Shown here: positions 7,856 to 30,723 of the stretch, piece after piece | How positions within the stretch are numbered: the stretch's first letter is position 1 | How the letters are laid out: every line of letters begins with the position of its first letter | Position numbers and translations under genes: made by a program | Assembly: GCA_027623875.1 (NCBI GenBank) | Contig: JAQBUS010000001.1 | Location: forward strand, 1 to 49,305 | From: Pseudomonadota bacterium | GTDB taxonomy: Bacteria; Pseudomonadota; Alphaproteobacteria; Rhodobacterales; Rhodobacteraceae | Length of the DNA stretch: 49,305 nt | Reading direction: 5' to 3' | Notes under the pieces: generated by a model | The model's database searches: none | What the model saw: the letters and a program-made list of their open reading frames with translations, nothing else | Told to the model about the DNA's origin: nothing

Positions 7856-8865
7856 ACTTTAATATACTTTACATCTTGAAGACTTAGTAGGTTTTTGCCT
7901 CCCGAATAGCTTACGGCGCTTTTTAAATCTTCATCAATTTCAATAAGCTTGGTTTTGAAGTTCATTCCGCAGGAGGGAATGTTCCTTAGGGTGCCCTCTA
8001 TGTGGGCTCTTGTTTTTTTATTCTCAAAGCTAGCCGAACCGTAATAAGCCTTGTGAGGCGTACCATTAATCTCAATAGAGTGAGAAGGACTGTCAGAACA
8101 GCATGCAAATAAGCCTCCAGCCATAACTAAGTCCGCTCCCGCAACCAAGGCTTTGGCCGCGTCTCCATTGCAACAAACCCCTCCATCCGCAATGATTTTA
8201 ACTTTTTCAGGTAGTTTGTAGTCCTCCTTTAATGAAGCGTTTGAGAACATGAAGCCATCGTCTTTGTCAAATAAAACTTTTGAGCAGGACTCAACGCAGG
8301 TGAACATAGGAATTGTGAAACCAGTCTTATCCTTTGTGGTGCAAGGGCTACCCTGCCCAATCCCCACTTTAACATAATCAGCTCCCCACGCAGAAAGATC
8401 AGCTACAGCCTCTGGCTTCGCCACATTGCCAGCAATAATACAAACGTTTTCTAAGCTTGACTTGCAAATCTCAATCATTTCCTTCATTGATTCGCAATGC
8501 CCATGAGCAATGTCAATGGTTATATAGTCAACTCTAGATTTAGAATTCCTAATGCTTTTTATAATATCCTTGTCCGCACCCTTTACGCCAAGACTTATTG
8601 AGATAGTTTTCCAATTTTCCTCGTTAGCCTCTTCTATGAATTTTTGAATATCAACATCAAATCTATGCATGATGTAGAAATAATCATTATCACTCATCCA
8701 TTTGCAATGCCTCACATCTATAACAGACTTCATATTGGAAGGTATAACTGGAAGTTTGAACTTTTTACCTCCTATTTCCTTGGAAACATCACAATCAGAC
8801 CTAGACCTAACAATAGAAAAATTAGGAACCAAGTTTACATCGGAATACTTTAAATATTTACTCAT
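7852..8865 (-). CDS. guaC: GMP reductase (GuaC, IMPDH/GMPR family)
   Basis: 337 aa. The N-terminus (YSDVNLVPNFSIVRSRSDCDVS...KFKLPVIPSNMKSVID...YFYIMHRF) closely parallels Bacillus-type GuaC. Catalytic loop is GIGQGSPCTTKDKTGF. Confidence 0.85.
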   Translation of the reverse strand: MSKYLKYSDVNLVPNFSIVRSRSDCDVSKEIGGKKFKLPVIPSNMKSVIDVRHCKWMSDNDYFYIMHRFDVDIQKFIEEANEENWKTISISLGVKGADKDIIKSIRNSKSRVDYITIDIAHGHCESMKEMIEICKSSLENVCIIAGNVAKPEAVADLSAWGADYVKVGIGQGSPCTTKDKTGFTIPMFTCVESCSKVLFDKDDGFMFSNASLKEDYKLPEKVKIIADGGVCCNGDAAKALVAGADLVMAGGLFACCSDSPSHSIEINGTPHKAYYGSASFENKKTRAHIEGTLRNIPSCGMNFKTKLIEIDEDLKSAVSYSGGKNLLSLQDVKYIKV

Positions 8866-9146
8866 ATTTTTAAGTTTTTAAGCACGTCTTCACATAAATT
8901 ATCAATAAACTCCCCACTAATTCTAGTGTAATATTTATCCCTTACAACATGGTAAAAATTTTCATTCTCAATAATAATCACTAAGCTAGCCTTAGATAAA
9001 AGATCTCGACCATATTTTTCTATAAAAGCTTTCTCCAGACCATCAAGGATGAAGTCCTGAGTCTGGTTAAAACCAAAGGTGAAATTTAAATTTTCAGCTT
9101 TTTCTATTAAAATCATGACATGTGGTGGTAGGCTACATAAAGACAA
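8862..9146 (-). CDS. hypothetical protein (94 aa or shorter)
   Basis: ORF only. The track start at 9146 is TTG; the first in-frame ATG is at 9116. Confidence 0.35.
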   Translation of the reverse strand: MSLCSLPPHVMILIEKAENLNFTFGFNQTQDFILDGLEKAFIEKYGRDLLSKASLVIIIENENFYHVVRDKYYTRISGEFIDNLCEDVLKNLKI

Positions 9147-9183
9147 AGTGCGACATAACCAATAGCTATAAATAATTCATTCA

Positions 9184-9723
9184 TTATCTAAATTCCTTTC
9201 TTAGTAATCTCCACCTATCAGAGTCTATTGTTTTAGTTCCACTATCTATAGCATACAGCATTTCAATAATTTCGTCAAGGTTATTATAAATATATTTATG
9301 AGGGAACATTCCTAACATCCATAGCGGAGTCTTTGACTTTCCGCCCTCCATACTGACGAAGACAGGCTTCTTCATACGAACCGCCGTCACAATTTCCTCT
9401 GCAGACCCCCAACTCGCAACGTCTGGAACTAAATGCGCAATTATAAAGTCAGAACGGTCTACTAGATTAAGATCGTAAGCGCGCACAGTTTTCATTCTAT
9501 CAGTAACTCTGTCGTACTGTTTTGTTTTCATCCAAGTCTCCATCTCTACTCGAGTGGCCTCGTCTTCCTCAACGTCCTTCATGAAGGGTTTATTATAAGG
9601 GTTGAAGCAGGTTATCGATAAAGAACTTAGTTTTTCAGTGACTTCAGCTCTCCAGTCTCTACCGCTAAGGTATTGCATATGACCTACTAAGTAGGTTTTT
9701 GTTTTGAATAGTAGGTTGCTCAT
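9184..9723 (-). CDS. nucleoside 2-deoxyribosyltransferase-like protein
   Basis: 179 aa. Pattern KTYLVGHM...DWR...(D)RSDFIIAHL...WGSAEEIVTAVRMKKPVFV is typical of the NDT-like Rossmann superfamily. Confidence 0.45.
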   Translation of the reverse strand: MSNLLFKTKTYLVGHMQYLSGRDWRAEVTEKLSSLSITCFNPYNKPFMKDVEEDEATRVEMETWMKTKQYDRVTDRMKTVRAYDLNLVDRSDFIIAHLVPDVASWGSAEEIVTAVRMKKPVFVSMEGGKSKTPLWMLGMFPHKYIYNNLDEIIEMLYAIDSGTKTIDSDRWRLLRKEFR

Positions 9724-9731
9724 TTCCTATA

Positions 9732-9760
9732 ATAGTAACATGAAATCACTTTATAGTCAA
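9732..9760 (-). promoter_or_regulatory. sigma70-type promoter TTGACT-17nt-TACTAT
   Basis: Minus strand reads gcTTGACTataaagtgatttcatgtTACTATtataggaaATG, with the ATG at 9723, 8 nt after the -10 box. Confidence 0.6.
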
Positions 9761-9776
9761 GCATATATTTGTAAAA

Positions 9777-10211
9777 TGGTGGAGGTGGCGGGAATTGAAC
9801 CCGCGTCCCAAGCATCTTCAAGCGCTCACATCTACAAGTTTAGTTAATTTTTTTTATAGTTATGATATTAACATCCAACTCCTTGTTACCATTATACTCA
9901 GTGGACTACAGTTTATTAACAAGTAAACCTTTTCTGTTTTTGCAGATAGATGACCCCTTATCCCCTTTATCTGCGTCAAGAAGTAAGAGGTGACAGCTCT
10001 ACGCTGCCATTGGAAGCTCTTCAGCCTCGTAGAGAGCAGTGGCGTCCTCAATTAATTGAGAGACTGCGTACTCCTCACGAGCGGCTTCAAGAAGCTCCTC
10101 TATGCTATTATAGCCTTCGCCAAATATAGCTTTTGCATCTTTTTAGGGAGCCTGATGCTTCTCCCACTTGCAGTGAACGAATCCAACCCTAGTCGAATCC
10201 AGTACACCCCC
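9777..10211 (-). ncRNA. ssrA: tmRNA (ssrA), one-piece
   Basis: 5' end GGGGGUGUACUGGAUUCGAC... and 3' end ...GGACGCGGGUUCAAUUCCCGCCACCUCCACCA. The 7-bp acceptor stem includes a G3:U pair (the AlaRS identity element). T-arm is GGGUUCAAUUCCC. An internal reading frame ends ...PMAA-UAG. Confidence 0.9.
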
Positions 10212-10234
10212 AAAATTTTTCAAAGAACAACTAT

Positions 10235-10263
10235 ATAATACACTAGATATTGTTTTTTGTCAA
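10235..10263 (-). promoter_or_regulatory. sigma70-type promoter TTGACA-17nt-TATTAT for the tmRNA
   Basis: Minus strand reads gcTTGACAaaaaacaatatctagtgTATTAT, followed by 23 nt and then the mature GGGGG 5' end. The -35 box and spacer lie inside the 3' end of the Clp ATPase gene. Confidence 0.6.
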
Positions 10264-12732
10264 GCTTTTCTGCGATAAATGAATGACGCCGTCATCACTT
10301 ATGTCGAACATGGCGATATCACCACTTGATATTTTCTTCCTTAGGATTGCCTCCGCTAGAATTGGCTCTACCTTATCCTTTAGTATGTGAATAATGGGTC
10401 TAGCACCCAGGTTCATAGACTGAGCTTCCTTGATTAAGGAATTGATCAAATTTAAAGATAACTCTAGTTTTATTTTCCTATTTTTTATTCTTTTGTTTAG
10501 GTTGGCAATTTCAATGTCAAAAACTTTACGAAAATCATTATCATTAAAATCTTGAAATATTATTATGTCATCAAGCCTATTAACAAACTCAGGAGAAAAG
10601 AAAGCTTTAGACTTTTCTAGAATTTTATCGCGAGTGATTTCCTCGGAAGAGGATTGAGAAAAACCTAAGGCTCCTCCCGATTTTTCTATAATATCGCTAC
10701 CCAGATTACCTGTTAAAATAATAAAACAATTACTAAAGTCAGCCACCCTACCAAAATTATCAGTTAATTTTCCCTCCTCTAAAACTTTAAGTAAAACTTG
10801 AGTAACTTCAGGATGAGCCTTTTCTATTTCATCAAATAGTATTACGCTATAAGGGCTTTTTCTAACCTTATCTATTAATGCGCTACCCTCATCATAACCA
10901 ACGTAACCAGGAGAAGCTCCCACTAACTTTGAGCTGCTAACTTTTTCAGAGAATTCACTCATGTCGAATTTAATAACCCTATTCTCGCCTCCAAAGATAA
11001 ATTTAGATATTTTTTTAGCGGTTAAAGTTTTACCAACCCCTGTTTTACCTAAAAATAAGAATGAAGCTGTTGGTTGAGATGGATTATTTAAACCTGAAGC
11101 GAACCTAATAACTGATTTGTAAATCTTGTCAACAGCCTCGCTCTGACCTATAATTTCTTTGTTTAAATTTTTCTTTAAATTCAAATATTTATTTTCACCA
11201 GAAGAAGATATGATGGATATTGGTATACCGGTTTTTATAGATATAACCTCTTCAATGTCAGACCGATTTACATATATAGTATTATCTAATATAGACTGCT
11301 GCCATTCATCCAAGATGACTTGATACTTCTCGAATAATTCATCTTGACATTCCTCCAGAACCCTCTTTCTTTCTGGATCTGTTGTTAGTTGTTCTTGCTC
11401 CATTATAGACTCAATGGCCGATTCTAAACTTTTAGCTTCATTAGGTCTTTTGAAATTTCTAACTTTAACTTTTGACGCCGCCTCATCTATTAAGTCAATA
11501 GCTTTATCTGGTAGATTTCTGTCTGTCAAGTACCTACTGCTCAAGTCTACTGAAGCTTTTAGGGCGTTTTTCCTATATTTAATTTTATGAAAAGATTCGT
11601 ACTGATCGCTTATATTAAGCAAAATTTCATAACACTCCTTAGTTGAAGGCTCATCTATAATGACGGACTGGAACCTTCTAGCTAGAGCGCCATCTTTAGA
11701 TATAGATTGCTTATACTCCTTTAAGGTTGTCGCGCCAATACATCTAATTTCACCTCTAGCGAGCATAGGCTTAAGCATGTTTGCAGCATCCATGCTTCCT
11801 TCGGCGCTTCCCGCGCCAATTAAGGTGTGTATTTCATCTATAAATAAAATATTATTTTCGTCTTTTTTAATCTCATCTATAACCCCCTTTAATCGCTCCT
11901 CGAATTGCCCCCTATATTTAGTACCAGCAACTAAATGGCTTAAATTTAAAGCGTACACCTGCTTACCTAGAAGAAAATCAGAGACTTCTCCGTTGATTAT
12001 TCTTTGAGACAAACCTTCGATAATGGCAGTTTTACCCACTCCAGCTTCACCAAGTATTATTGGGTTGTTTTTAGTTCTCCTGCATAAGATTTCAACAACT
12101 TCAGATATAGCTTCATCCCTACAGACTACTTTGTCAAATTTACCAGAAGCAGCAAGATCCGTAAAGTTTACAGAGTATTTAGATAGGAATTTTTCACTAT
12201 TTGAAGGGGGGATATGTAAACCCGCATCCTTTGCGGACTTTAAACGCCTATTCTTTTTAGCTTTTTTAACATCAACCATCCTGTCTATAGAGTCGCCCTC
12301 AAGGGTAGACCTTACCCGTTGAGAAATTGCGTCACAGTCCAAATTGTACTCTTCAAGTACATGAGACAAACCTTTAGTTTCTAACAAGCTTATTAAAACA
12401 TGCTCTACCCCTACGTAAGCGTGACTATAAAACTCAGCAAGTTCAGCGGACTTTCTCAATACGCTTTTGAAACTTTTAGAAAAAGTTATCTGCTCAGGGT
12501 TGAAATTTACATTAGGTTTTAAATATTCATTAAAATAATCGTCATCGAAATTCTCTGGATCTTCGACAGCTTCAGCTAACAAGGAGTTCTGAACTTTAAA
12601 AATGCCAAGTAATAAATGCACAGGCTTAACTGAGCTATTTTTGGATTTTGCCGCCTGTTCTTTAGCTAACTTAATAGCTTGCTGAACTCTAGGAGTGAAA
12701 TTTGGTAAAGCTTCCATGTTATTCAACGTCAC
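10243..12732 (-). CDS. ClpA/ClpC-type double-AAA+ unfoldase with Clp_N domain and ClpP-docking loop
   Basis: 829 aa. Two Clp_N repeats. Walker A motifs GEAGVGKTA and GKTGVGKTL. The D1 signature (GQFEERLK...IDEIHTLIGAG...ARGEIRCIGATT...ALARRFQ) is present. Only a short middle region. SGGALGFSQSSS aligns with the ClpA IGL / ClpC VGF loop that binds ClpP and is absent from ClpB. Confidence 0.85.
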   Translation of the reverse strand: MTLNNMEALPNFTPRVQQAIKLAKEQAAKSKNSSVKPVHLLLGIFKVQNSLLAEAVEDPENFDDDYFNEYLKPNVNFNPEQITFSKSFKSVLRKSAELAEFYSHAYVGVEHVLISLLETKGLSHVLEEYNLDCDAISQRVRSTLEGDSIDRMVDVKKAKKNRRLKSAKDAGLHIPPSNSEKFLSKYSVNFTDLAASGKFDKVVCRDEAISEVVEILCRRTKNNPIILGEAGVGKTAIIEGLSQRIINGEVSDFLLGKQVYALNLSHLVAGTKYRGQFEERLKGVIDEIKKDENNILFIDEIHTLIGAGSAEGSMDAANMLKPMLARGEIRCIGATTLKEYKQSISKDGALARRFQSVIIDEPSTKECYEILLNISDQYESFHKIKYRKNALKASVDLSSRYLTDRNLPDKAIDLIDEAASKVKVRNFKRPNEAKSLESAIESIMEQEQLTTDPERKRVLEECQDELFEKYQVILDEWQQSILDNTIYVNRSDIEEVISIKTGIPISIISSSGENKYLNLKKNLNKEIIGQSEAVDKIYKSVIRFASGLNNPSQPTASFLFLGKTGVGKTLTAKKISKFIFGGENRVIKFDMSEFSEKVSSSKLVGASPGYVGYDEGSALIDKVRKSPYSVILFDEIEKAHPEVTQVLLKVLEEGKLTDNFGRVADFSNCFIILTGNLGSDIIEKSGGALGFSQSSSEEITRDKILEKSKAFFSPEFVNRLDDIIIFQDFNDNDFRKVFDIEIANLNKRIKNRKIKLELSLNLINSLIKEAQSMNLGARPIIHILKDKVEPILAEAILRKKISSGDIAMFDISDDGVIHLSQKSLTKNNI

Positions 12733-15274
12733 TTAATTTCATGAATATTTTCTCATTCAATTTTGAAATATTATCAATAAAAAGTATATCGTCACCTTTA
12801 CTTCCAGTTAATGAGATTATATCGTTCTTCTCTGGAGGTTTATTTCCTGCGTTTATGTATTCTGAGAACTTGCTGCCCCTCCTATTATCACACATCATCG
12901 CCCCGTACTTTCCATACTCATCCGATATTAACAATTTTAAATACTTATTCCCATTTCTACTAGTGCTTCTAAAGGACTCTTCAACAACTCCAATGAATTT
13001 ACCACGATCTCCCTGAGGCATTGAATAATACCTTAAGGAATCGTAAAGCTCTCCACTATCTTTGAATACATTTTTTAATTTGTAACTGTAACTGTACCCT
13101 AATAACTGTTTCTCAAAATACCAGCTAGCAAATTTCTCAAACTTTTTATTTTGAAGGTATATACCCTTGTATTTGACATATTTTTTTCTAAAAGTCTCAA
13201 ATCTAGACTCTTTCATTAATAATTTTCCATCGTCAGCTATCAAGCCTTCTTTAGCAGCAGCTATAATGTCCAAAAGCCTATACTCGTGCCTTTCGCCAAA
13301 TATCATAACGTTTCGCTTCTCCCTATCAGTTAATAAATTGAAAGACTGAGCTTCTAGGACGGTTAGGGATCTTGAATCCTTGGAGGATAAAGCTCCAGCC
13401 TGTATTAATGCCGACAGTATTCCAATGTTGAGTCCGGCCTGCTTAGCTGAAACGAATATATCAAACTTATTGGGATTTTTAGATTTCCTAAAACTTCTCA
13501 AAGCGTTTAAGGACTTCTCACTGACACCTTTAATACTATTTAAACCAAATCTTATATTGAAACCCTCTTTCGAAAAGTCCATATTTGATAAACCTAGGTC
13601 CGGAGGAAGCAATTTCATGTCAAAGAAGGAAAGTTCTTGAGTTATGCTATTTATCTCCTCTTGAGGAGACGGTTCAAACTTGGTCATTTTTAACAAGCTT
13701 AAGAAGAATTGCTGGGGATATTTGAATTTTAAGTAAGTTGTCCAAGCTGAAAGAGTTGCATAAGCTATTGAATGACTCTTATTAAACGAGTAATTCGCAC
13801 TATCTTCAGCAACCTTCCATAGGATATCTCCAACGTCTTCCGGTATTTTGTTTTCAGAAATTTTTTGCTCAATCTTAATTTTCCAAGCAGGCATCTGGTC
13901 CACTTTTTTCTTACCAACTATTCTTCTTAATTGTTCAGCTTCATCAAGTGTGAAGCCTACCTTGACAGCCATCTTCATTAATTGTTCCTGATAGAGGGGT
14001 ATCCCTCCGGTATAATCAAGTATATCGTTAAAGAAATCATGTATATTTTGACGTTCTCCAGATTCAATATAACTCGAATAGCTATCCAAAAACTCCAACG
14101 CACCAGGCCTGGCAATTGCTATCACCGCACTTAACTCCTCCAAGCTCTTGGGTTTAACTTTCCTGCAAACTCTAAAGTTGGTATCGGCTTCAATTTGAAA
14201 TAATCCTTGAGGACATCTAAATTCGTTGGATAGAGGTTTGTATATTTCAGGATCGTCCAAATCTACATCATAAATATTAATATTTAAATCGTTACAAACG
14301 TCATAAATAACACTCAGAGTCCTCAAACCTAGGATATCAAATTTCACCATAAGCTCCGAAACCCAGTTCATGTCGTACCCAGTTACGAAAGATCCATCGT
14401 TAGCTAATTGAACTGGACATATTTCCGAAATCTCTTGGTACGCGATAGCTATTCCAGAGGGATGAACTCCTGTGTTTTTGTTTAAACCTTCTATTTTTTT
14501 AGCTATCAAATAGATAAAATCATTTTCGTCAGCCCACTCCTTGAATCTAGGACTTTCCTCGTAAGCTTCGCTCAGGGGTGAGATTTTACCAAACTTTTTA
14601 GGAATCATATCGCTGACAGCGTTAACATCCTGTTCGGCTTTTTCTCCCACTATCTTTCCGCATTCTTTAATGCATAGTTTTCCACTTAATGTATTCAGCG
14701 TTAATATTTTACAAGTTCTAGATGGGTGTTTCTGTTCAATATATTCTATAACTTTCTGCCTATGCTCATAAGCTATGTCATTGTCCACGTCAGCAAGCAA
14801 GCTGCCGTCTAGATATGTCACCCCATCTTTAATGGTTTTTTTAGCTCTACTCTTAGACACAAACCTCTCAAAAAATAATTCATACCTAACGGAATCAATA
14901 TCAGTAACTCCAATTAGAAAAAGGACTAACGAACCAGCCGCAGAACCCCGTCCCGGACCAACTGGTATGTCATTCTCACGGCAATAATTAAGAATATCCC
15001 AGTTGAGAAGAATATAATCAACGAAGCCCAAATCGTTAAGTGTGTCAAGCTCCATCTTGAGCCTTGAAATGTATAACTTTTTATTACAGAATTCATTAAT
15101 CCCCTTTTCCTTTAAGCCTTTCTTGCATAAGTGTTTTAAAAAATCAAAATTAGAGCAACCTTCTTTTGTAGACAATTCCTTGTAGTGCCTCTTTTCTATT
15201 TTAATCTCAGGAAGCCTAACTCCCGGCGGAACGCAATTATTATAAGCCTTAAAATCTTCAATGAAACTTTTCAT
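12719..15274 (-). CDS. dnaE: DNA polymerase III alpha (DnaE-type) catalytic core: palm/thumb/fingers/OB, lacking its PHP domain
   Basis: 851 aa. Hallmark motif GPGRGSAAGSLVLFLIGVTDID. Also LPPDLGLSNMDF, and a C-terminal OB-like region (GKFIGVVEESFRSTSRNGNKYLKLLISDEYG). It starts at the position where the palm domain begins in full-length DnaE. Confidence 0.85.
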   Translation of the reverse strand: MKSFIEDFKAYNNCVPPGVRLPEIKIEKRHYKELSTKEGCSNFDFLKHLCKKGLKEKGINEFCNKKLYISRLKMELDTLNDLGFVDYILLNWDILNYCRENDIPVGPGRGSAAGSLVLFLIGVTDIDSVRYELFFERFVSKSRAKKTIKDGVTYLDGSLLADVDNDIAYEHRQKVIEYIEQKHPSRTCKILTLNTLSGKLCIKECGKIVGEKAEQDVNAVSDMIPKKFGKISPLSEAYEESPRFKEWADENDFIYLIAKKIEGLNKNTGVHPSGIAIAYQEISEICPVQLANDGSFVTGYDMNWVSELMVKFDILGLRTLSVIYDVCNDLNINIYDVDLDDPEIYKPLSNEFRCPQGLFQIEADTNFRVCRKVKPKSLEELSAVIAIARPGALEFLDSYSSYIESGERQNIHDFFNDILDYTGGIPLYQEQLMKMAVKVGFTLDEAEQLRRIVGKKKVDQMPAWKIKIEQKISENKIPEDVGDILWKVAEDSANYSFNKSHSIAYATLSAWTTYLKFKYPQQFFLSLLKMTKFEPSPQEEINSITQELSFFDMKLLPPDLGLSNMDFSKEGFNIRFGLNSIKGVSEKSLNALRSFRKSKNPNKFDIFVSAKQAGLNIGILSALIQAGALSSKDSRSLTVLEAQSFNLLTDREKRNVMIFGERHEYRLLDIIAAAKEGLIADDGKLLMKESRFETFRKKYVKYKGIYLQNKKFEKFASWYFEKQLLGYSYSYKLKNVFKDSGELYDSLRYYSMPQGDRGKFIGVVEESFRSTSRNGNKYLKLLISDEYGKYGAMMCDNRRGSKFSEYINAGNKPPEKNDIISLTGSKGDDILFIDNISKLNEKIFMKLSDVE

Positions 15275-15275
15275 A

Positions 15276-15914
15276 TTAAACTTCTACCTCCCACAATAGT
15301 TTTTTAAATACTTGGTAATTTTTAAATATATCATAAAGGGCATCGTGAAGTTTTCCCTCGTCGAAATCTATACTATAATCCACGCATAACTGTTTCAAAC
15401 TGGTTTTCAAACCCTTTTTCCTGAAGTTTTGAAGTTTATATTGCCAAGATAAGAAATCTGAGCCGTTAAGATCTATGCCTTCTTTCTTAGCTCTAGCTAG
15501 GCAGTTTGTATCTATAGTTCTATCCATGTAGGAATAGTCAGAACTCTTCCCGCATAATATTCTGTGGATATTATGTATATAAACGTCAAACCCAATTATA
15601 TTATGACCAACCACGTAGAAGCTATCATCATAAAGATACTTGTCAAAGTCCTCTAAAACCCTCAGAGGGTCTACCGCTCTTTTTTTATAAACACTTTCTT
15701 TAAAGCCTGTGATCCTTTTTGCGTCGTCAGATATTGGAAGACTGTCCCATTTTAAATAAAAATCATTCTTCTCTATTATTTCGTCGTTTTTTATTACTAA
15801 ATAAGCTAACTGCCAAGGTTTGTTGTTTAGCGACGCCAGATTTAAACCACAGGTTTCGTAGTCAAATATGACGTAATTTTTATTTTTATCAAATCTTAAT
15901 AAGTGATTATTCAT
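15276..15914 (-). CDS. DnaQ/epsilon-like 3'-5' exonuclease (DEDDh)
   Basis: 212 aa with ExoI VIFDYETCGL, ExoII VVGHNIIGFDV and ExoIII HDALYDI. There is a 1-nt gap to the polymerase core gene and an 8-nt overlap with the PHP gene. Confidence 0.8.
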   Translation of the reverse strand: MNNHLLRFDKNKNYVIFDYETCGLNLASLNNKPWQLAYLVIKNDEIIEKNDFYLKWDSLPISDDAKRITGFKESVYKKRAVDPLRVLEDFDKYLYDDSFYVVGHNIIGFDVYIHNIHRILCGKSSDYSYMDRTIDTNCLARAKKEGIDLNGSDFLSWQYKLQNFRKKGLKTSLKQLCVDYSIDFDEGKLHDALYDIFKNYQVFKKLLWEVEV

Positions 15915-16665
15915 TTACATACTCCTTCCAACTTTCAATACAAAATTCTCTACTACCTAAATGATCTAAGCCGGGATTTGATAAAGAGCGCTTCCTTCCA
16001 AAGGAACGATTGCATATGCATTTATAAGTCTGAAACGCTTCGACATCTTTTCGGGATTTATAATAAATCGTTTTAGCTTCTTCGTTTAAAAAACCATTTT
16101 CATCGCAAAATTTTAAAACTTTAGATTTAAGAAGATTATCAAACGGCAAACCGTTATCTTCAATAAAAAAAGTTGGACTACAAAAAGAGAAATCTGGAAT
16201 GCAGTTTCCGAAAGTCAAGCTGTTGCGATGCAAGAAGGAATCATAAAAGGGCACGGCTAATTTGAGATGATCCTCGCTCCATAAATCTTTTAGCAATTTG
16301 CAATTCCCAATCCCATTGAACTCGCAATTAATTTTGCTGTAAATTTTATTTAAAAGAGTGCAGCCTTCGTCATCCTTTGAGAAGATAATTATTTTATGTA
16401 TAGAGTCGTCCCCTTTCTCTGATTTTGAAAGAGACGAAATCTCAAATCTCAATCCAAAGATTAGCTGAATACCTAAACTCTCCGAATTGTTCTTAGCTTC
16501 CAAGAAGCCAATTGGAGCGTCCTCTACTAGGATCACAGTCTTGAGATCTTCTTCTTGAGCTATTTCAAAAATAGAATCCGAAGATCCCTCCTTGGTCGCC
16601 CCGGGAGGAGTGAGAGTGAGGATGCTTTTCCCCACGCTATAATGAGACTTAAATAAAGGTTGCAT
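15907..16665 (-). CDS. stand-alone PHP-domain fragment of DNA polymerase III alpha (metal ligands degenerate)
   Basis: 252 aa. The N-terminus LFKSHYSVGKSIL sits where DnaE has F-x-H-L-H-x-H-S-x-Y-S-L-L-D-G, and the His-x-His ligands are missing. Its position immediately upstream of the exonuclease and core genes supports the call. Confidence 0.6.
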   Translation of the reverse strand: MQPLFKSHYSVGKSILTLTPPGATKEGSSDSIFEIAQEEDLKTVILVEDAPIGFLEAKNNSESLGIQLIFGLRFEISSLSKSEKGDDSIHKIIIFSKDDEGCTLLNKIYSKINCEFNGIGNCKLLKDLWSEDHLKLAVPFYDSFLHRNSLTFGNCIPDFSFCSPTFFIEDNGLPFDNLLKSKVLKFCDENGFLNEEAKTIYYKSRKDVEAFQTYKCICNRSFGRKRSLSNPGLDHLGSREFCIESWKEYVNE

Positions 16666-16671
16666 GACTAT

Positions 16672-16700
16672 ATATTACCATAATAAGCAACATATGTCAA
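16672..16700 (-). promoter_or_regulatory. sigma70-type promoter TTGACA-17nt-TAATAT
   Basis: Minus strand reads ccTTGACAtatgttgcttattatggTAATATatagtcATG, with the ATG at 16665, 6 nt after the -10 box. Confidence 0.7.
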
Positions 16701-16746: not shown

Positions 16747-18915
16747 CTAATTTTTAATATTTTTACCATCCTTGAGACCTCCAGCATAAACATTTAAATC
16801 TAAACCTATTTTTTTAGAAGCTTTGAATATTAAATCTAAATAGTATTGTGGGTTTGAATCTGATTGAACGTGATATTCATCACTAAATACAATGCCATCA
16901 TGATTACGGATATGATGACGATTTTCCTGCCAGTAAAACGGCTTAAGGCTGTGACCTTTGCCAGATAGGTAGTTCTCACCCTGCCAAGCGCTTTCCACGA
17001 ACTCCTTAAACGACTTTGCAAAAGTCTTACCTCGATCCACTTGAAACATGACCCCACGATACACTCCGCCAAAGTCGTCAAGCCGGTTACGCAGTACGCC
17101 TAAGTCGTTCAAGTAGTGCTTCTCGGGATTCTTGTTGAAGTTGGGTAAATGATAGGACGGCGCCCCTTCATCCTGAAAAGCAAGCGCAAGTACATTTTTC
17201 TTCTTTGCCGCAGCAGCAAAAAACTCAAGTGAACGTTCACCATCTTCAGCGATACCCGGAGTACCGATTTCCTTAGAACCAACCACTTGAACACGACGGT
17301 TATATAAATTCTCGTCGTTCATGTAATAAGGTAAAAGAGCTTCCTTCATTATTCCGTCACGCATTTCCACAAGAGCTTTGCGGGTAGAGAGGATTGAGCC
17401 GCTCTCATCAACATACATCATGATGAAGAGGTTTCCATCTACAGGAAGCTCTTTCCAATAAGCTCCTTTGTCGAGACCCTTACCCCCTCCCAAACTTACG
17501 CAATCAGAACAGCCTTCATCCTTGCAACCTTCACATTCCACCCCTAAACCTAATGGGTGTTCTACTTTGTTTGGCATTAGTCCAGCAGCTACACCAGCAC
17601 CAGCGCCATTAACTAACCCAGCAACTCCACCAGCAACACCCGGAGCCAAAGATAATGCAGGACCGCCAGATTCTCCAGGATTACTATTCGGATCCCTAGG
17701 GTTAGTCAGAGCCACAAGCTCTTCACCATCATTAAATCCATCACCATCAGTATCTTCGTTTGTAGGGCTTAATCCATATAAGGATTCCAGAGACGAAGGT
17801 ACCCCATCTTCATCCTCATCCCCTCCAGGCGCGGGAGAACCAGGTTTACTGCTGGCCACTAAGGGGTTTGATAGGCCGCGAATTTCCTCAGAGTCACTAA
17901 TGCCATCTTTATCCGTATCGTTAGATTTCGGGTTAGTTCTAAAATAACTTTCCAAAGAGTCGGAAACTCCATCTCCGTCACTATCTAGGCCGGTCGCAAC
18001 GGTCGGCTTGACTGAGGAATACGAACCAATGCCTCCAAGCGCAGGAACCGCCTTACCGTCCAGTACAGCCTCTCCGATTCCAGCACCAATGCCAGCAAAA
18101 CCAGCCGCCGCACCAACTCCAGCGTTACCAATTCCAGCGCCAACTCCCTGACTTGGGTAATTATAGGCATAAAGTTTTCCTTTATCCACGCCCCGTCCAT
18201 CACTTCCTGGATTCCCCCCTTCAAAATCTGCGAGTATATCTCCTAGCTCGCTCTCGCCTTCATCTAGGGACATGTTGAGTAGGTTAGCCTCATCCCCGTC
18301 TAAACCATACTCATCTTCAATCACTAAAGCGCTTTCAGTATTATTTTCTTTTTTTAAATTATATAATCTACGATCTAGAATTCCAGCGTCAATATTTTCA
18401 TTAAGCCCAACTCTAAAACCATTTCCATTATTAATAGATAAGCTGTCATTATCAACATATACGGAATCATTAATGCCGCCATGTAGAACATTATTATTAA
18501 GGAATCTTCCGCGATCTTCAAAGTTTTTTTCATGAATAATATGCCTGTTAACTGAAGCTACTCGATCTACTATTAAGGAAGTATCTAACCTATTGTTGAT
18601 TAGTAAATTATCACCGTGATTCAACCCGACGTCAAAATCCCTGACAAATTCACGATCAACATAAACTATTTCCCTGCCTTCAGGGTCAACATCGACTGGA
18701 CGCTCTTCCCTTAGTTTTACAACGTCATCTTCAACTGTTCCGTCGAACAAATCAATGTAGTCAGCGTTAACAGGATCCATCGTAATAACTACGACTTCCT
18801 CGGTAGGCTTGAATGAGTTAAGGTTTAATAATATTAAAAATAAAAATAGGGACATCGTTGCGTACCCCATTATTAAATTAATTAAAGAGAGTTTTTTTAA
18901 TTTTTTATTTTTCAT
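16747..18915 (-). CDS. membrane-anchored protein with thrombospondin type-3 (Ca-binding) repeats, Gly/Ala-rich tracts and a C-terminal vWA-like domain
   Basis: N-terminal anchor KKLSLINLIMGYATMSLFLFLILLNL. Four TSP3-like repeats: DSDGDGVSDSLE, DTDKDGISDSEE, DEDEDGVPSSLE, DTDGDGFNDGEE. MIDAS-like motif YVDESGS. The track start at 18942 is a TTG inside the promoter, so the ATG at 18915 is preferred. Confidence 0.55.
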   Translation of the reverse strand: MKNKKLKKLSLINLIMGYATMSLFLFLILLNLNSFKPTEEVVVITMDPVNADYIDLFDGTVEDDVVKLREERPVDVDPEGREIVYVDREFVRDFDVGLNHGDNLLINNRLDTSLIVDRVASVNRHIIHEKNFEDRGRFLNNNVLHGGINDSVYVDNDSLSINNGNGFRVGLNENIDAGILDRRLYNLKKENNTESALVIEDEYGLDGDEANLLNMSLDEGESELGDILADFEGGNPGSDGRGVDKGKLYAYNYPSQGVGAGIGNAGVGAAAGFAGIGAGIGEAVLDGKAVPALGGIGSYSSVKPTVATGLDSDGDGVSDSLESYFRTNPKSNDTDKDGISDSEEIRGLSNPLVASSKPGSPAPGGDEDEDGVPSSLESLYGLSPTNEDTDGDGFNDGEELVALTNPRDPNSNPGESGGPALSLAPGVAGGVAGLVNGAGAGVAAGLMPNKVEHPLGLGVECEGCKDEGCSDCVSLGGGKGLDKGAYWKELPVDGNLFIMMYVDESGSILSTRKALVEMRDGIMKEALLPYYMNDENLYNRRVQVVGSKEIGTPGIAEDGERSLEFFAAAAKKKNVLALAFQDEGAPSYHLPNFNKNPEKHYLNDLGVLRNRLDDFGGVYRGVMFQVDRGKTFAKSFKEFVESAWQGENYLSGKGHSLKPFYWQENRHHIRNHDGIVFSDEYHVQSDSNPQYYLDLIFKASKKIGLDLNVYAGGLKDGKNIKN

Positions 18916-18941
18916 GACTATTGTATTTACACAAGTTATCA

Positions 18942-19094
18942 ATTATATTATATAATAAAAAATTATAAATGTCAACTTTTTTCTTTAACTTTGTTTTTTA
19001 AAAAATCAATCATTTTTAATAATTTGTCTATTTCCTTTTCTTGTTTTTTAACCTTAACGCTTAACTCTGTGATGATTTCTATAGCTTTTTTCAT
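18942..19094 (-). CDS. small hypothetical coiled-coil protein (50 aa)
   Basis: Translated by hand: MKKAIEIITELSVKVKKQEKEIDKLLKMIDFLKNKVKEKKLTFIIFYYII. Its ATG overlaps the upstream stop as ATGA. Its 3' end contains the next promoter. Confidence 0.3.
18947..18975 (-). promoter_or_regulatory. sigma70 consensus promoter TTGACA-17nt-TATAAT
   Basis: Minus strand reads agTTGACAtttataattttttattaTATAAT, with a 31-nt leader to the ATG at 18915. Confidence 0.7.
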
Positions 19095-24648: not shown

Positions 24649-24717
24649 TTATTGCGAAATTAACTGGTTAATGTAATCTCTGTTACCATGAAAACCAAAA
24701 CAATCATGGCGAACTTG
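24649..24717 (-). pseudogene. orphan duplicate of the 3' end of the DUF5672-like gene
   Basis: Reads QVRHDCFGFHGNRDYINQLISQ*, compared with the intact C-terminus QVRHDCFGFHGNKDYIGSCVI* of ORF 25536..26213. There is no upstream ORF in this frame. Confidence 0.6.
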
Positions 24718-25531
24718 CAATTAAGTCGCTTCTAATGAAGGCCGTTTCAAGAATTTTTTTATCAATGAGTTCTTGGCATGCGGGATTACAAATGAAACTA
24801 TCAGAGTCTCCAAAAAGATATCTTTCCGAAGCTAAAGATTTATGAGATTGATACGCTTTTGCTGGGTAATTAACTAAACTGCCTTCCCAATTCGGAAACC
24901 AATTATAAAATTCTTCTGTAGCTACGACATGAATTAATTCATAACCAAAAGATTGTATTTTTTTGATATATTTTACAGTATCTTCTGCAGTGTAATCACA
25001 ATCATATTCCCAATGATTCCCTGAGTATTTCGAGCTAGCCAACCAGTGATGCCATCCAACGAGAAGTTGATCAACATTTAAGTTAGACAGGGATTCAAAA
25101 ATTTCAAACTCGCTACCCTCTATGTCCATTTTTAAAACAGAGGTATTTGGGTATTTTTCTAATACATCATGAATATTAACAGCATCAAACTTGGGGTTAT
25201 TTTGATCCACGCATAATGCGGAGATTGCGGGACCACCAAAATTAACTTTTTTAAGGCTTGAACCTACAACAGCTTTCTCTTCGTAAATAAACCTATTTTG
25301 CATATGAGGCAAATCCTTCAACCTATTGTATGTGTCCCTAGAGACCTCGGTAGGGTCGAAGCCAACAACCTTAACGGTGTCATTTAGTTTTAGCATTTCC
25401 CCGTCAAAAGAAAAGTCATCTCTAAGACCCATCGATAAAATGTAAGAATTATCCCTAACTCTTGAAGCGTCCATTATTAATGAAGCGCCATTATCTACGC
25501 CAATAAAAGATAAATTAATTTTACTATTCAT
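24704..25531 (-). CDS. FkbM-family methyltransferase
   Basis: 275 aa. VLKMDIEGSEFEIFESL is the FkbM signature (D-I/V-E-G-x-E). The last 5 codons are read out of frame from the duplicated DUF5672 tail. Confidence 0.6.
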   Translation of the reverse strand: MNSKINLSFIGVDNGASLIMDASRVRDNSYILSMGLRDDFSFDGEMLKLNDTVKVVGFDPTEVSRDTYNRLKDLPHMQNRFIYEEKAVVGSSLKKVNFGGPAISALCVDQNNPKFDAVNIHDVLEKYPNTSVLKMDIEGSEFEIFESLSNLNVDQLLVGWHHWLASSKYSGNHWEYDCDYTAEDTVKYIKKIQSFGYELIHVVATEEFYNWFPNWEGSLVNYPAKAYQSHKSLASERYLFGDSDSFICNPACQELIDKKILETAFIRSDLIASSP

Positions 25532-25535
25532 AATG

Positions 25536-26213
25536 TTATATTACACAAGATCCAATGTAATCCTTGTTGCCGTGAAAACCAAAACAATCATGGCGAACTT
25601 GCCCCCAATCATCCTTGGAGAATTTATTAGCAAGCTCTATGGGCGCGTATTTTATTCCATGACTAATAAAATATTCATAATTATTTAAGCAATAGTATAC
25701 GTCTTCGGGACCTATTAATTCCTTAGGGCACTGAGCAGCAAGCTCTAAGATTTTTCTACTCCTAAGGGAGAATCCCCCATTGCCGACAAAGTTAGGTATA
25801 CTAGAAGTAACTTCCGGCTCCAACCACTGAGACCCCTGAAGGATGAAGTCGGGCCAAACGGCGCCTATATAATCATAGTCCAAAAACTCGTTCGTCCAAA
25901 GCTCGGGATGATGGACAAAGCCATCGGTTTGAACTATAAGAACATAATCAGTATCGATAAATTTATATAATTCATTAACAATAAATTCATTGTATCCATT
26001 GTTCCCCCTTCCTTGTTGGTGGATGTTGTGATTGAACTTTTCAACTTCCACATATTCTATACCATCCAAGGACTCATTAGGCTTTTCAAAAGAAATTAAT
26101 TTAACTTGGTCAAAGTCTATTTCACCCATGCAGACCCGAAGAAGCTTTGTGCAAATATTGGGGTCCACCCCATCAATTGTTGCAAGAGTTACATCTTTTA
26201 ATTTAGAACTCAT
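25536..26213 (-). CDS. DUF5672-like protein (putative glycan-modifying enzyme)
   Basis: 225 aa. YDYIGAVW...GNGGFSLRSRK pattern, recalled from the DUF5672 family. Not verified by search. Confidence 0.35.
   Translation of the reverse strand: MSSKLKDVTLATIDGVDPNICTKLLRVCMGEIDFDQVKLISFEKPNESLDGIEYVEVEKFNHNIHQQGRGNNGYNEFIVNELYKFIDTDYVLIVQTDGFVHHPELWTNEFLDYDYIGAVWPDFILQGSQWLEPEVTSSIPNFVGNGGFSLRSRKILELAAQCPKELIGPEDVYYCLNNYEYFISHGIKYAPIELANKFSKDDWGQVRHDCFGFHGNKDYIGSCVI
25537..25546 (-). promoter_or_regulatory. GTGTAATATA motif (copy 2 of 3)
   Basis: Minus strand reads cttGTGTAATATAacattATG. TAATAT ends 6 nt before the ATG at 25531. Confidence 0.3.
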
Positions 26214-26215
26214 TA

Positions 26216-28180
26216 TTAAGAATCAGGAATACAGGCAATGCATTCGCCGGGAGGTGAGTCTAAGAATATATACCCAAGGTTTGACAGTTCATCCATGAAG
26301 CTTTTTAATTTAGCGGTAACCCCACTAAAGGCTCCATCGCTATGCTCAGATTCAAATTGTATATATTTAATTTTATATTTACTAAAATCCACGCTCCTTA
26401 AGATATCTATATCGTACCCTTCAGTGTCAATATACAATCTATCTATTACTTCTAGATTATATTCTTCGAGAAGTCGGTTGATATTAATAGCCGGAGCATC
26501 AAAACTCTCGACATCATCTTCGAGATGGTTGTGGTCTAGCAAGTGTTGTCTGTTGACAGATGTATGTTGCCCATTGGTTTCTTTAGGGCTAAAATAAAGA
26601 GTTAACTTGTCAGCCTCCTCCACCGTAATTGCCTTGTTGACTAGCTCAATGTTAACATCTACGCCCTCATAAACACTGACACAATTTGCAATCTTTGTTG
26701 AATTTGGATCAACTAGTATAGCTAATTCTATCTCTGAAGCATTGTTTATGATGAAATCTTTTACGGAATCAAGAAGATCGCAGTCGTTGCATCCTATTTG
26801 TACTATGTTCATCTTGTCAGCCTCCTCCACCGTAATTGCCTTGTTGGCTGGCTCAATGTTAGCATCTTTTTTTTGTAAAATAATGGTTAAGCTATCTGGA
26901 TTGGTGTAAAATATGCCACAAAATTTTGAATCATCAATTCTGTTTTTCTTTATATTTTCAACAAATATATTAAGAAAGCCATCGTCTTTAAGGGCGTCAC
27001 AATGAACGTCTTCTATTATGTAAAATCCATTTGATTTGACATGTTTATATAAAACATCGAAAGATTTAAGCTGATCTTTGGTTGCATGACTGCCGTCATC
27101 AATAATGATGTCAAATTCATTATCATAATCTTGACAAATATCAAGCAAAACATTTTCATCCGATTGATTGCCTTCACGAAGGTCTATTCTGCCGAGATCT
27201 TTAATTAATTCCCATCCGCCACCTTCGACTCCAAGTTTTAAATTTCTATTAACGATGTCAGGATTAATATCTAAACCAACTATTTTTGCATTTGAAAAGT
27301 AATCAGCAAAAGCCAAAAGGGAAGCCCCTTTTGCTATGCCAAGTTCAAATATTTTTATAGAGTCATGCCTAAGAGGATCAAGAAAATAGGAATACACCTC
27401 AGAGTATAAATGACCCCCTCCGCAGTGATGATCGAAAAAATTTGTACCCTTATCCGTCTTATATTTGTCGCAAATTTCCGTTAAAGATAGGTCTTCGTTA
27501 ATTCGCTCCCAATTCACAAGGGGGGATTGATAAGGTTCGTGAAGATGACTTGAGTAACCGGGAATAGGCACCCAAAGCCTGATATTTAAATCGGTATATA
27601 AAAATCTGAAAAAATCTCTATCCATTAAGCCGAAACTAATGGCGTATTCTTTTATTTTTTCAAAAATCAATTTAGTGCAGGCCCAAGTGCAAGTTGTAGA
27701 CTCTGAGGTTCTCCAGTGAGAGGATTCGGTTAATTGAATTTCCTCTTTACCCTTAGTTATGTCATCTTCGCGAGTATATCTGTCCGGATGATCGTAGAGA
27801 GTGATCAAACCAAATGCCGCCAAGCCTTCAACTAGTATTTTACCAGCTCCTTTTTTGTGAGAATAATCATCTTCCACAAAATATACGCTGTCAAAAGAAA
27901 GGTCTGAAGCTAAAGATAAACAATGCATTAAGCTGTTGTGATTGTTTTTGAAATTGACTCTATGAAGTTTGACAAAAGAAAAAGATTCTATATGTGTTAA
28001 ATAATCACAATCATCTCCATCAAAAACAACATGGAATTCAGCGTTGTCAAGCTCTTCAAAAACATTAGAAACTAAGAGGTCAAAATTCCTAACTTTAGAA
28101 AAGTAAGAAGGCCTTGCGTCTTTAAAAAGAGGACTCTCAAGCTCCGCGTTGCATGTTCTAAATAAAATTACATTTTTCAT
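26216..28180 (-). CDS. three-domain enzyme: GT2-like glycosyltransferase + class I SAM methyltransferase + FkbM-type methyltransferase
   Basis: N-terminal domain has VYFVEDDY (DxD). Middle domain has KYKTDKGT...IFELGIAKGASLLAFADYF...IIDDGSH. C-terminal domain has IVQIGCNDCD...YIDTEGYDIDIL. The ATG at 28180 is preceded by GGAGGTGAAA; the track start at 28192 is the TTG overlapping that SD. Confidence 0.6.
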   Translation of the reverse strand: MKNVILFRTCNAELESPLFKDARPSYFSKVRNFDLLVSNVFEELDNAEFHVVFDGDDCDYLTHIESFSFVKLHRVNFKNNHNSLMHCLSLASDLSFDSVYFVEDDYSHKKGAGKILVEGLAAFGLITLYDHPDRYTREDDITKGKEEIQLTESSHWRTSESTTCTWACTKLIFEKIKEYAISFGLMDRDFFRFLYTDLNIRLWVPIPGYSSHLHEPYQSPLVNWERINEDLSLTEICDKYKTDKGTNFFDHHCGGGHLYSEVYSYFLDPLRHDSIKIFELGIAKGASLLAFADYFSNAKIVGLDINPDIVNRNLKLGVEGGGWELIKDLGRIDLREGNQSDENVLLDICQDYDNEFDIIIDDGSHATKDQLKSFDVLYKHVKSNGFYIIEDVHCDALKDDGFLNIFVENIKKNRIDDSKFCGIFYTNPDSLTIILQKKDANIEPANKAITVEEADKMNIVQIGCNDCDLLDSVKDFIINNASEIELAILVDPNSTKIANCVSVYEGVDVNIELVNKAITVEEADKLTLYFSPKETNGQHTSVNRQHLLDHNHLEDDVESFDAPAININRLLEEYNLEVIDRLYIDTEGYDIDILRSVDFSKYKIKYIQFESEHSDGAFSGVTAKLKSFMDELSNLGYIFLDSPPGECIACIPDS

Positions 28181-28182
28181 TT

Positions 28183-29178
28183 TCACCTCCAATAAGAATA
28201 TATTCCTTTGTTTATCTCGTAGTTCATGGTTTTAAGCTCTCTCTTGGGTTGATCTTTCGCCCAATTAAACATTTTATCCACTAAGGAGTCTAAGTTGGTT
28301 TCATCTTTAAAGCTCAAGAAATTCTTAGCCTTATCGTGATTGCAGTATGCATCCTTTACCTCGAGCCTGGCCTCTGCATGCTCAATTGTATTTGAGTATC
28401 CATACTTCTCCCCCGTTTTTCTTACGATTTCAGCCACCTCATTAAGCGACCAGTGTTTGTCAGCTCCAATATTAAAAATTTCTTCGTCATGACCATCGAT
28501 CAATTGGTAGAAAGGCTCCATGTAATAGTCGATATCTGAAAAAGCTCTAGTCTGCTCACCATCTCCATATACTAATATGGGTTCTCTATCTAAAGTCCTA
28601 CGAATAAAGATTCCAATGACATTTCTATATTTATCCCAAATGTTTTGATAAATACCCAAAACGTTATGCGGGCGGATGATGTTATATCTTAGTCCAAATT
28701 GAACGCCGGCTTGTTTAATGTCCATTTCTACAGCGTATTTAGCTATGCCATAGGGGTCACAGGGTGTGGGAGTGAGGTCTTCCGTAAAAGGCGGGACGCT
28801 GCAACCATATACAGCCATAGTGGAAGTGAAAATTAATTTACAATCAAATTCAACACAATTATTTATAACATTGACCGAGGATATGATATTGTTTTGGTAA
28901 TTGAAGCGCCTTACGAACGGTGACAACCCTTCGGCTGCATAAGCGGCAAAGTGATACACCGCATAAGGTTTATGTTTTTTAAATAAATCTTTCAATCTTT
29001 CGTGATCTTCATCCAGAGACAAATGATGAAATGAAAATTTTTCATGATTGGGTGTATAATCTAAATACCCCCCAAAAAGATTGTCTATACCAATGACTCT
29101 ATATCCTTTGTTTAGTAAAAATCTAGAGTAATGGTTACCCAATAAGCCCGCACAGCCAGTTACAAATATAGTTTTCAT
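28183..29178 (-). CDS. NAD-dependent sugar epimerase/dehydratase (extended SDR)
   Basis: VTGCAGLLGNH (GxxGxxG) and YGIAKYAVE (YxxxK). The ATG at 29178 forms an ATGA overlap with the upstream gene; the track start at 29199 is TTG. Confidence 0.75.
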   Translation of the reverse strand: MKTIFVTGCAGLLGNHYSRFLLNKGYRVIGIDNLFGGYLDYTPNHEKFSFHHLSLDEDHERLKDLFKKHKPYAVYHFAAYAAEGLSPFVRRFNYQNNIISSVNVINNCVEFDCKLIFTSTMAVYGCSVPPFTEDLTPTPCDPYGIAKYAVEMDIKQAGVQFGLRYNIIRPHNVLGIYQNIWDKYRNVIGIFIRRTLDREPILVYGDGEQTRAFSDIDYYMEPFYQLIDGHDEEIFNIGADKHWSLNEVAEIVRKTGEKYGYSNTIEHAEARLEVKDAYCNHDKAKNFLSFKDETNLDSLVDKMFNWAKDQPKRELKTMNYEINKGIYSYWR

Positions 29179-29864: not shown

Positions 29865-29884
29865 TTTATTTATTTATTTATTTA
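29865..29884. repeat. (TTTA)5 microsatellite
   Basis: Five perfect tetranucleotide units between the ATG of ORF 29175..29864 and the last codons of ORF 29874..30719, covering that ORF's stop codon. Confidence 0.9.
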
Positions 29885-30719: not shown

Positions 30720-30723
30720 ATTG

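Follow-up and report, generated by a model that had tools for sequence, protein, structure and literature searches.

A gene for transfer-messenger RNA (tmRNA) that begins just behind the end of a gene for a ClpP-docking unfoldase raises the question of whether the two belong to one system, in which the first writes a degradation tag and the second reads it. Such a pair occurs on the reverse strand of a 49,305-nucleotide stretch of contig JAQBUS010000001.1 (assembly GCA_027623875.1), referred to here at its full length as the window, which is a 49-kb part of an uncultured marine tailed phage. A first-pass annotation, made from the sequence alone, had proposed a phage-borne tagging-and-unfolding module. 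Set against about a hundred relatives, the adjacency proves instead to be a local arrangement of one small sub-clade, and a dedicated tag-and-destroy module is not established. The conserved partner of the unfoldase, a ClpC, is the polymerase DnaE, in a DnaE-ClpC operon that is new here. We consider it probable that the window holds two independently transcribed takeover functions, both exploiting host factors, which abut by chance in this genome. Feature coordinates are positions in the window and refer to its reverse strand.

Linkage of the tmRNA and ClpC genes

The tmRNA follows a ClpC gene at a distance of no more than 250 nt in the window and in related loci L003-5, L006-7, L009-10, L032, L069/L181, L185 and L084. 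Relatives of the tmRNA were gathered by means of a tmRNA-specific motif, which returned 55, later 81, IMG/VR contigs plus two contigs from metagenome-assembled genomes (MAGs). Among 35 informative unique tmRNAs, ClpC is encoded directly upstream of five and 1.4-5.7 kb upstream of another five, while for 25 none is found in 3-12.6 kb. Counted from the other side, about 71 informative DnaE-ClpC loci include two with a tmRNA less than 300 nt away and nine with a tmRNA at 1.35-2.7 kb, while roughly 60 have none within about 4 kb. The strain IMGVR_UViG_3300046450_002833, approximately 99% identical to the window by IMG/VR comparison, carries a 2.7-kb cassette that separates ClpC from the tmRNA. Because of these synteny counts and this insert, the conserved unit is taken to be DnaE-ClpC rather than ClpC-tmRNA, and the proposal of a conserved tmRNA-ClpC module fails as a description of the lineage.

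ClpC lies directly after DnaE in 77 of 80 DnaE-centered loci (L175-L254), the other three being truncated or partial matches; this set, like the other list of related loci used to score co-occurrence, comprises the best 80 of more than 530 candidates. The gene order RNase T, DnaE, ClpC was found in every relative examined, with ClpC as the final gene of the operon and a spacer of 0-1 nt between it and the stop codon of DnaE (one base in the window). The part of the operon upstream of ClpC spans 12719-16700 (-), as delimited by Pfam matches, a promoter match and gene order in relatives. It begins with a sigma70-type promoter recognized by motif match at 16700-16672, followed by three genes assigned through Pfam: a PHP-like open reading frame (ORF) of 252 amino acids (aa) at 15907-16665, whose match to the PHP domain is weak (E 0.0097), an RNase T-like exonuclease of 212 aa at 15276-15914, and a DnaE core of 851 aa at 12719-15274. 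The replicative polymerase is thus split, the DnaE core beginning at its NTPase domain without PHP, and the PHP-like and RNase T-like ORFs standing separate.

The cassette in the nearly identical strain (8517-11150 of locus L001, equivalent to L068 and L243) encodes a 120-aa ORF, a 497-aa protein with an NTP_transferase domain and a 264-aa ORF. The most frequent neighbors of the tmRNA are a gene resembling nucleoside 2-deoxyribosyltransferase (NDT) and a GMP reductase gene. The NDT-like protein (179 aa, 9184-9723 (-) in the window) is the most conserved neighbor of the tmRNA, with 72-90% amino acid identity across the family, far above the 31-61% of ClpC, and its gene occurs on either side of the tmRNA, depending on the relative.

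Transcription units

The tmRNA has its own promoter, as had been proposed: a sigma70-type element at 10235-10263 (-) matching the consensus at 11 of 12 positions, with TTGACA as the -35 box (10263-10258), a 17-nt spacer and TATTAT as the -10 box (10240-10235). The promoter had been described as embedded in the last codons of the ATPase gene; this holds for the -35 box (AGC TTG ACA, encoding S L T) but not for the -10 box, which lies past the ClpC stop codon. The motif class TTGACW-N16-18-TAHWAT has six matches in the window, against 0.81 expected, and all six fall on the coding strand; among the features they precede are the tmRNA, the NDT-like gene next to it, and the PHP-like ORF at the head of the polymerase operon. 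Many relatives show a comparable block, TTGAC(A/T)-17-TAATAT-like and followed by a 17-nt leader, with constant spacing to the mature 5' end of the tmRNA. In L001, where the tmRNA has its own TTGACA-17-TAATAT, the block is kept though the gene upstream of the tmRNA is not ClpC.

The pre-tmRNA 5' leader of the window, about 17 nt in length (GTTCTTTGAAAAATTTT), occupies 10212-10228 (-), running from the predicted start of transcription, a coordinate that is an estimate, to the mature 5' end, and is conserved in relatives. Its consensus, gtTcTTTaAaA.TTTAT, stands directly 5' of GGGG in 45 distinct upstream regions, whichever gene lies upstream. Since promoter and leader keep a fixed distance from the tmRNA whatever precedes them, the tmRNA is best regarded as a transcription unit of its own. 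An ORF runs right up to the leader in some relatives, implying that the two are co-transcribed and then processed. In the window, terminator prediction found none between ClpC and the tmRNA, so that transcription may read through from one into the other. The 17-nt leader GTTCTTTgAAAAtTTTAT is kept before the mature 5' end at the 45 loci behind promoter and coding sequence alike.

The tmRNA and its tag

The claim of a complete one-piece tmRNA was borne out by both of the searches proposed for it. ARAGORN reports a single tmRNA in the window, 435 nt in length at 9777-10211 (-), and Rfam model RF00023 matches the same coordinates over its full length (model positions 1-374 of 374) scoring 130.7 bits where the gathering score is 47 (E 6e-51). 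The molecule runs from 5' GGGGGUG to 3' CACCUCCACCA; its tRNA-like domain has the G3-U pair, the mark of alanine identity, in the acceptor stem, an encoded ACCA 3' end and a T-arm. A full-length tmRNA was present in all gathered relatives, and ARAGORN misses those of L006 and L009, which Rfam detects. RNAalifold, run on 36 relatives, predicted 66 pairs, of which 31 show compensatory change; the G3-U pair is kept in 36 of 36, and the pairs of the acceptor stem and T-arm covary. The minimum free energy of folding has a z-score of -4.7. The body of the tmRNA is 72-84% identical to that of all relatives, across every class of tag.

Helix 5 is a hairpin at 9991-10009 (-), UGGCAGC-GUAGA-GCUGUCA, identified by stem-loop prediction and covariation and holding the stop codon of the tag in its loop. 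Its equivalent in relatives covaries (columns 218-236 of alignment A3), with AU in 18 sequences and GC in 13. Rfam places helix 5 elsewhere, at an internal hairpin of the tag insertion in the window, an assignment that was rejected because the stop-codon hairpin is the one homologous to helix 5 of the relatives. The 3' pseudoknot region (about 9880-9900 in the window, A3 columns 326-360) takes a variable insertion of 10-35 nt: most relatives lack it, the window has a short version, and long versions occur in L032, L044, L045, L055 and L021.

The tag reading frame, established by translation and by comparison with relatives, extends over 9999-10121 (-), from the resume codon GGC (10121-10119) through 40 codons to the stop codon TAG (10001-9999). 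It encodes GEGYNSIEELLEAAREEYAVSQLIEDATALYEAEELPMAA, a 40-residue peptide with a net charge of -10 that ends in PMAA. By alignment column, the resume codon is homologous in 49 of 49 unique related tmRNAs, as GGC or GCC, and most of these have UACAU directly in front of it, so that U falls at -5 and A at -4, the positions they also hold in E. coli. Two other readings of the frame were set aside. The 16-aa tag reported by ARAGORN (EDATALYEAEELPMAA) is a truncation, the homologous resume codon lying 24 codons upstream in a frame that is open and conserved; the ARAGORN tags of L003 (ADKLDKG...) and of several others are likewise wrong. The +1 frame (GCG AAG ..., giving AKAIIA*) shows no conservation in relatives.

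Substitution patterns argue that the long frame is real and that its peptide is under selection. The tags of L011, L021 and L045, (G/A)EGYYSIEELLEAAREEYDNLVQFEQAEELEMVA, share the frame of the window but use different stop codons, and over the first 18 codons each comparison with the window shows four to seven synonymous codon differences and only one or two nonsynonymous ones. Altogether the evidence from relatives indicates that the tmRNA is under strong selection in this lineage, both structural and coding.

Tags of tmRNAs usually have about 10-27 aa. Those of this lineage span 20-40 aa in length and -10 to +10 in charge, and fall into several classes: the commonest, at 20-21 aa with mixed charge and the ending ...LALAA (for example GNKSRIKAYSPQSESLALAA); a basic class of 31-33 aa at +10, represented by the 31-aa GNKNRVRALGFKNRLAAKRFGFKGRKLALAA; an acidic class of 34-40 aa at -10; and a basic form of 38 aa. 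The C-terminus follows A-(L/M/V)-(A/V)-A in all of them. As the long acidic and basic tags have kept in common only this Ala-rich terminal motif, the body of the tag must matter to something.

The ClpC-type unfoldase

The ATPase gene had been read as an 829-aa double-AAA+ protein, the length given by the mechanical ORF 10243-12732 (-) that opens at GTG 12732. Its two AAA+ modules are confirmed by Pfam and by two intact Walker A motifs, GEAGVGKT and GKTGVGKT, but the length is not: the start is probably ATG 12717, one base past the TAA stop codon of DnaE, which gives 824 aa (10243-12717 (-)) and agrees both with the database protein P0001, also of 824 aa, and with the N-termini of relatives. 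Pfam finds Clp_N, AAA, AAA_lid_9, AAA_2 and ClpB_D2-small in the ORF, and FIDEIH, LFDEIEKAH, KYRG and GYVGY, the Walker B and pore-loop motifs, are visible in the alignment to ClpC.

Solved relatives and Pfam together identify the protein as a ClpC-type class I Clp/Hsp100 unfoldase. Among proteins of solved structure, B. subtilis ClpC/MecB and S. aureus ClpC come closest and match it over a single stretch (residues 11-815 against 5-800, E 1.7e-182); tblastn against Firmicute sequences gives about 38-41% identity to the B. subtilis ClpC region. Alignments to ClpB split in two at the middle domain (about 478-494), and ClpA scores lower. In this enzyme family ClpA has no middle domain, and that of ClpB is about twice as long as that of ClpC. 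The middle domain of the phage protein, residues 418-480, aligns to ClpC without a break save one 3-residue gap, and the single ClpC stretch, set against the split ClpB matches, marks it as being of ClpC length. No NCBIfam model names the ATPase at its cut-off, the equivalog scores being 756 against 1232 for ClpB (TIGR03346) and 678 against 993 for ClpA (TIGR02639). Identity as ClpA or ClpB was rejected on these scores, on the length of the middle domain and on the ClpP loop described below, so that of the earlier label, ClpA/ClpC type, only the second half stands.

The ClpP-docking loop was correctly recognized at first pass. The residues ALGF (688-691 in the numbering of the 829-aa ORF; 10660-10671 (-)), located in the translation, align with YVGF of B. 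subtilis ClpC; G690 and F691 do not vary among 16 family proteins, and 24 of 25 members that share only 38-61% identity with the window protein retain (L/I/V/M/A)GF, in a family that spans 31-61%. Such conservation of GF points to selection on ClpP docking and against a free, ClpB-like disaggregase. Together with the ClpC-length middle domain, it favors the predicted protease-coupled type over ClpB.

Two Clp_N repeats had been reported. The whole N-terminal domain, residues 11-150 (12283-12702 (-)), does align with residues 5-140 of the ClpC domain, but Pfam scores only one repeat as significant, with a Clp_N match at 97-141. In the N-domain of B. subtilis ClpC, residues E32 and E106, numbered reportedly after Trentini and colleagues (2016), take part in binding adaptors or phospho-arginine. 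The equivalent of E32 is Val38, a position that varies in the family, whereas the equivalent of E106, E110, is invariant.

Host factors

The module as proposed would have relied on SmpB and ClpP from the host, neither having been seen in the window, and the searches agree on their absence there. With E. coli sequences checked against PDB chains as queries, tblastn over the window and 147 related loci (1.43 Mb) found no match to SmpB. ClpP was absent from the window by tblastn and Pfam, and among the 147 loci it occurred only beside Clp ATPases without an N-domain that belong to another phage group, matches that serve as a positive control for the search. Pfam scans of the window ORFs likewise found none of the adaptors sought (ClpS, MecA, McsB and SspB-type domains). 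We infer that both functions depend on host factors.

The ClpP-bearing contigs of the other phage group encode a Clp ATPase of about 630 aa without an N-domain and, 1-2 kb downstream, a ClpP that is 36-42% identical to that of E. coli, which makes a complete phage-encoded Clp protease. The set comprises L002 (6001-9403 of that locus, on a 518,809-bp IMG/VR contig), L096, L097, L106, L107, L120, L122, L123, L132 and L134.

The phage lineage and other genes of the window

That the window is viral, as the first-pass annotation had assumed, is supported by its presence in IMG/VR and by tail genes near the tmRNA in relatives, where a lambda-J-like central tail fiber (phrog_31, E 2e-104) and a minor tail protein are encoded. 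All genuine genes of the window share one strand, and they include genes for replication and recombination (a DnaB-like helicase, a primase, an exonuclease, a UvsX/RecA-like recombinase and the split DnaE) as well as a GMP reductase, a NUDIX protein, a Holliday-junction endonuclease and a large glycosyltransferase/methyltransferase cluster. A cellular source was rejected on gene content, strand uniformity, membership in IMG/VR and the tail genes of relatives taken together.

The lineage is abundant, with at least 80 IMG/VR contigs whose DnaE is at least 60% identical and contigs that reach about 214 kb. Megablast with 25 kb of the window found no match to cultured relatives, blastn with the tmRNA found no sequence relative among 50,697 GenBank phage records, and DnaE is at most 32% identical to those of GenBank phages. 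The MAG bins to which lineage contigs were assigned carry conflicting labels: Cellvibrionales, Halobacteriovorax and Bacteroidota. Downstream of the tmRNA region, two ENA marine metagenome contigs, L003 and L006, encode PSCyt2/PSD1 and DUF1501 domains, families that are typical of Planctomycetes-like genomes.

A 16-kb cluster for glycan modification (24700-40733 (-)) lies within the replication region of the phage; it encodes glycosyltransferases, one domain resembling family-10 fucosyltransferases among them, nucleotide-sugar epimerases, several methyltransferases and DUF5672. Neither Pfam nor NCBIfam recognizes the two large ORFs at 42316-49197 (-), one of 592 aa and one of 1,699 aa; the latter has a single PHROG match, of unknown function. 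A 731-aa ORF at 16747-18942 contains bacterial TSP3 repeats.

Comparison with known systems

Phage tmRNAs are known from mycobacteriophages of the Bxz1 group and from Bacillus phage G (PMC4131195), and huge phages carry tmRNA, sometimes together with SmpB (PMC7162821). A survey found tmRNA in 2.3% of 18,146 phage genomes, with only 2.5% of the one-piece phage tmRNAs being marine, and tagging of host proteins for amino acid recycling has already been proposed for a marine phage tmRNA (PMC9004378). Like the tmRNA of the window, those of the Bxz1 group, phage G and the huge phages, and the two-piece tmRNA of OM43 phage Melnitz, are complete ssrA genes of lytic phages; in these known cases, too, SmpB of the host is presumed, the promoter is of an early type, and the roles proposed are the maintenance of ribosomes or the tagging of host proteins for recycling. 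The tmRNA described here differs from them in being both one-piece and marine, in its 40-aa tag at -10, and in the 20-40 aa span of tags in its lineage. No phage tmRNA with a tested function was found in the literature searched.

With the ClpC proteins of bacteria (B. subtilis, S. aureus and ClpC1 of M. tuberculosis), the phage protein shares the N-domain, D1, the short middle domain and D2, the position of the ClpP loop, all ATPase motifs and an alignment from end to end. Unlike them, it is encoded by a phage, at the end of a DNA polymerase operon, it has Val at the position equivalent to E32, and genes for MecA, McsB and ClpS were not seen in the window. The logic of the bacterial SsrA pathway (tmRNA-SmpB with ClpXP or ClpAP) is matched by a tag with a hydrophobic-Ala-Ala end and a ClpP-coupled unfoldase, but the writer and the candidate reader are here both viral, SmpB and ClpP are unseen in the window, and the tag is about four times as long as that of E. 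coli and strongly acidic. The paired Clp ATPase and ClpP genes on contigs of large phages are a further point of comparison. Their ATPases are 40-44% identical to the window protein over residues 182-814 but lack the N-domain, ClpP is encoded 1-2 kb downstream, and their loci hold no tmRNA of the family found in the window; in the lineage of the window, in contrast, the ATPase has an N-domain and lies behind DnaE, with no ClpP close by.

New here are the corrected 40-aa, -10 tag, the breadth of tag lengths and charges found in a single lineage, and the invariant DnaE-ClpC operon. For phage-encoded ClpC, ClpB or ClpX, searches on the exact phrases returned no literature match, and the term Clp is absent from the huge-phage paper PMC7162821. 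This is weak evidence that the phage ClpC side has not been described before.

Probably two takeover functions rather than one

Under the interpretation favored here, two units would be transcribed independently. The first would be the polymerase operon, comprising the PHP-like ORF, the RNase T-like exonuclease, the DnaE core and ClpC, transcribed from the promoter at 16700. From the conserved (L/I/V)GF loop, ClpC is predicted to dock on a ClpP barrel, most likely that of the host. The second unit would be the tmRNA, transcribed from its sigma70-type promoter with the conserved 17-nt leader. Alanyl-tRNA synthetase (AlaRS) of the host would charge it with alanine, and SmpB and EF-Tu of the host would bring it to stalled ribosomes, where it would add Ala and the 40-residue, -10 tag ending in PMAA. 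In this way the tmRNA would release ribosomes and mark incomplete proteins, which may then be cleared by Clp proteases: ClpXP or ClpAP of the host, possibly also phage ClpC with host ClpP. A role for phage ClpC as a reader of the tag is therefore possible within this scheme. Both units most likely serve the takeover of host proteostasis early in infection.

Several observations weigh against a chance association of two separate functions. The tmRNA and ClpC are encoded on the same contig, far apart, in at least 10 of the 19 tmRNA-bearing contigs of at least 100 kb, a figure that is a lower bound, being drawn from the best 80 candidates of each list. Such co-residence in many genomes, like the shared promoter class, is also expected of functional partners. 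The searches for partner genes span 49 kb of a genome of probably 120-214 kb, so that SmpB, ClpP or an adaptor may be encoded elsewhere in it. Last, the 40-aa acidic tag is only a putative degron.

The foremost alternative is a dedicated writer/reader module, in which phage ClpC specifically reads the phage tag and feeds host ClpP through a channel of its own; we regard this as unlikely. It would account for the adjacency shared by the window and the sub-clade whose ClpC resembles its own most closely (also L084), for the co-residence and common promoter class just mentioned, for the conserved ClpP loop and for the shared ending of all tags. SsrA tags are, moreover, within the range of such enzymes, since ClpC1 of M. 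tuberculosis unfolds SsrA-tagged protein and, like ClpA, acts on SsrA tags (PMC6274998). Yet adjacency is the minority state, broken even between strains 99% identical, and ClpC is tied to DnaE rather than to the tmRNA. Nor does the candidate reader domain follow the tag, as would be expected if tag class and reader co-varied. The net charge of the ClpC N-domain, -8 to +4, shows no relation to acidic or basic tags, while tag charge itself runs from -10 to +10, and a correlation between the two was looked for and gave no signal. The acidic tag class accompanies ClpC proteins only 38-39% identical to each other, those of the window and of L092, the latter sharing its contig with tmRNA locus L011.

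It is rather more doubtful that ClpC serves replication, by remodeling or activating proteins of the replisome or initiators or by destroying replication or transcription factors of the host, with the tmRNA an unrelated rescue gene. ClpX and ClpA offer a parallel in their action on MuA, lambda O and P1 RepA. A replication role would fit the invariant place of ClpC at the end of the PHP-RNaseT-DnaE operon, behind a 0-1-nt spacer, as well as the floating position of the tmRNA. On the other hand, gene order in early regions of phages may not mirror function, ClpC has no replication-specific domain, and ClpP or a target would still be required, none having been identified.

Comparably doubtful is a private and programmable channel. 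Here the phage would hijack SmpB, and proteins from ribosomes stalled during host shut-off would receive lineage-specific charged tags (20-40 aa, -10 to +10), to be read by ClpC on host ClpP or by an unseen tag-specific partner. Were this the case, host protein would be converted into amino acids while host adaptors are evaded, and tag diversity would stem from an arms race or from adaptation to host range.

It is very improbable that the tmRNA is mainly a decoy, which titrates host SmpB or competes with host tmRNA to block the host response and whose tag is irrelevant: a tmRNA fragment of mycobacteriophage DS6A consisting of the tRNA-like domain only has been suggested to titrate SmpB (PMC4131195), but the coding constraint on the tag argues against a pure decoy here, the entire molecule being under structural selection, with the tag peptide kept through synonymous change and its stop codon held in the loop of helix 5.

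The polymerase operon of the lineage always ends in a ClpP-dockable ClpC, an unexplained link between replication and proteolysis. Catalogued tags of phage tmRNAs are usually taken straight from ARAGORN output, the source of the truncated tag corrected above. The conclusion that the tag body must matter opens the role of phage trans-translation to direct testing. If the tmRNA and ClpC are partners after all, they would constitute the first viral tagging-and-degradation pathway; if they are not, each would be a defined and tractable takeover function.

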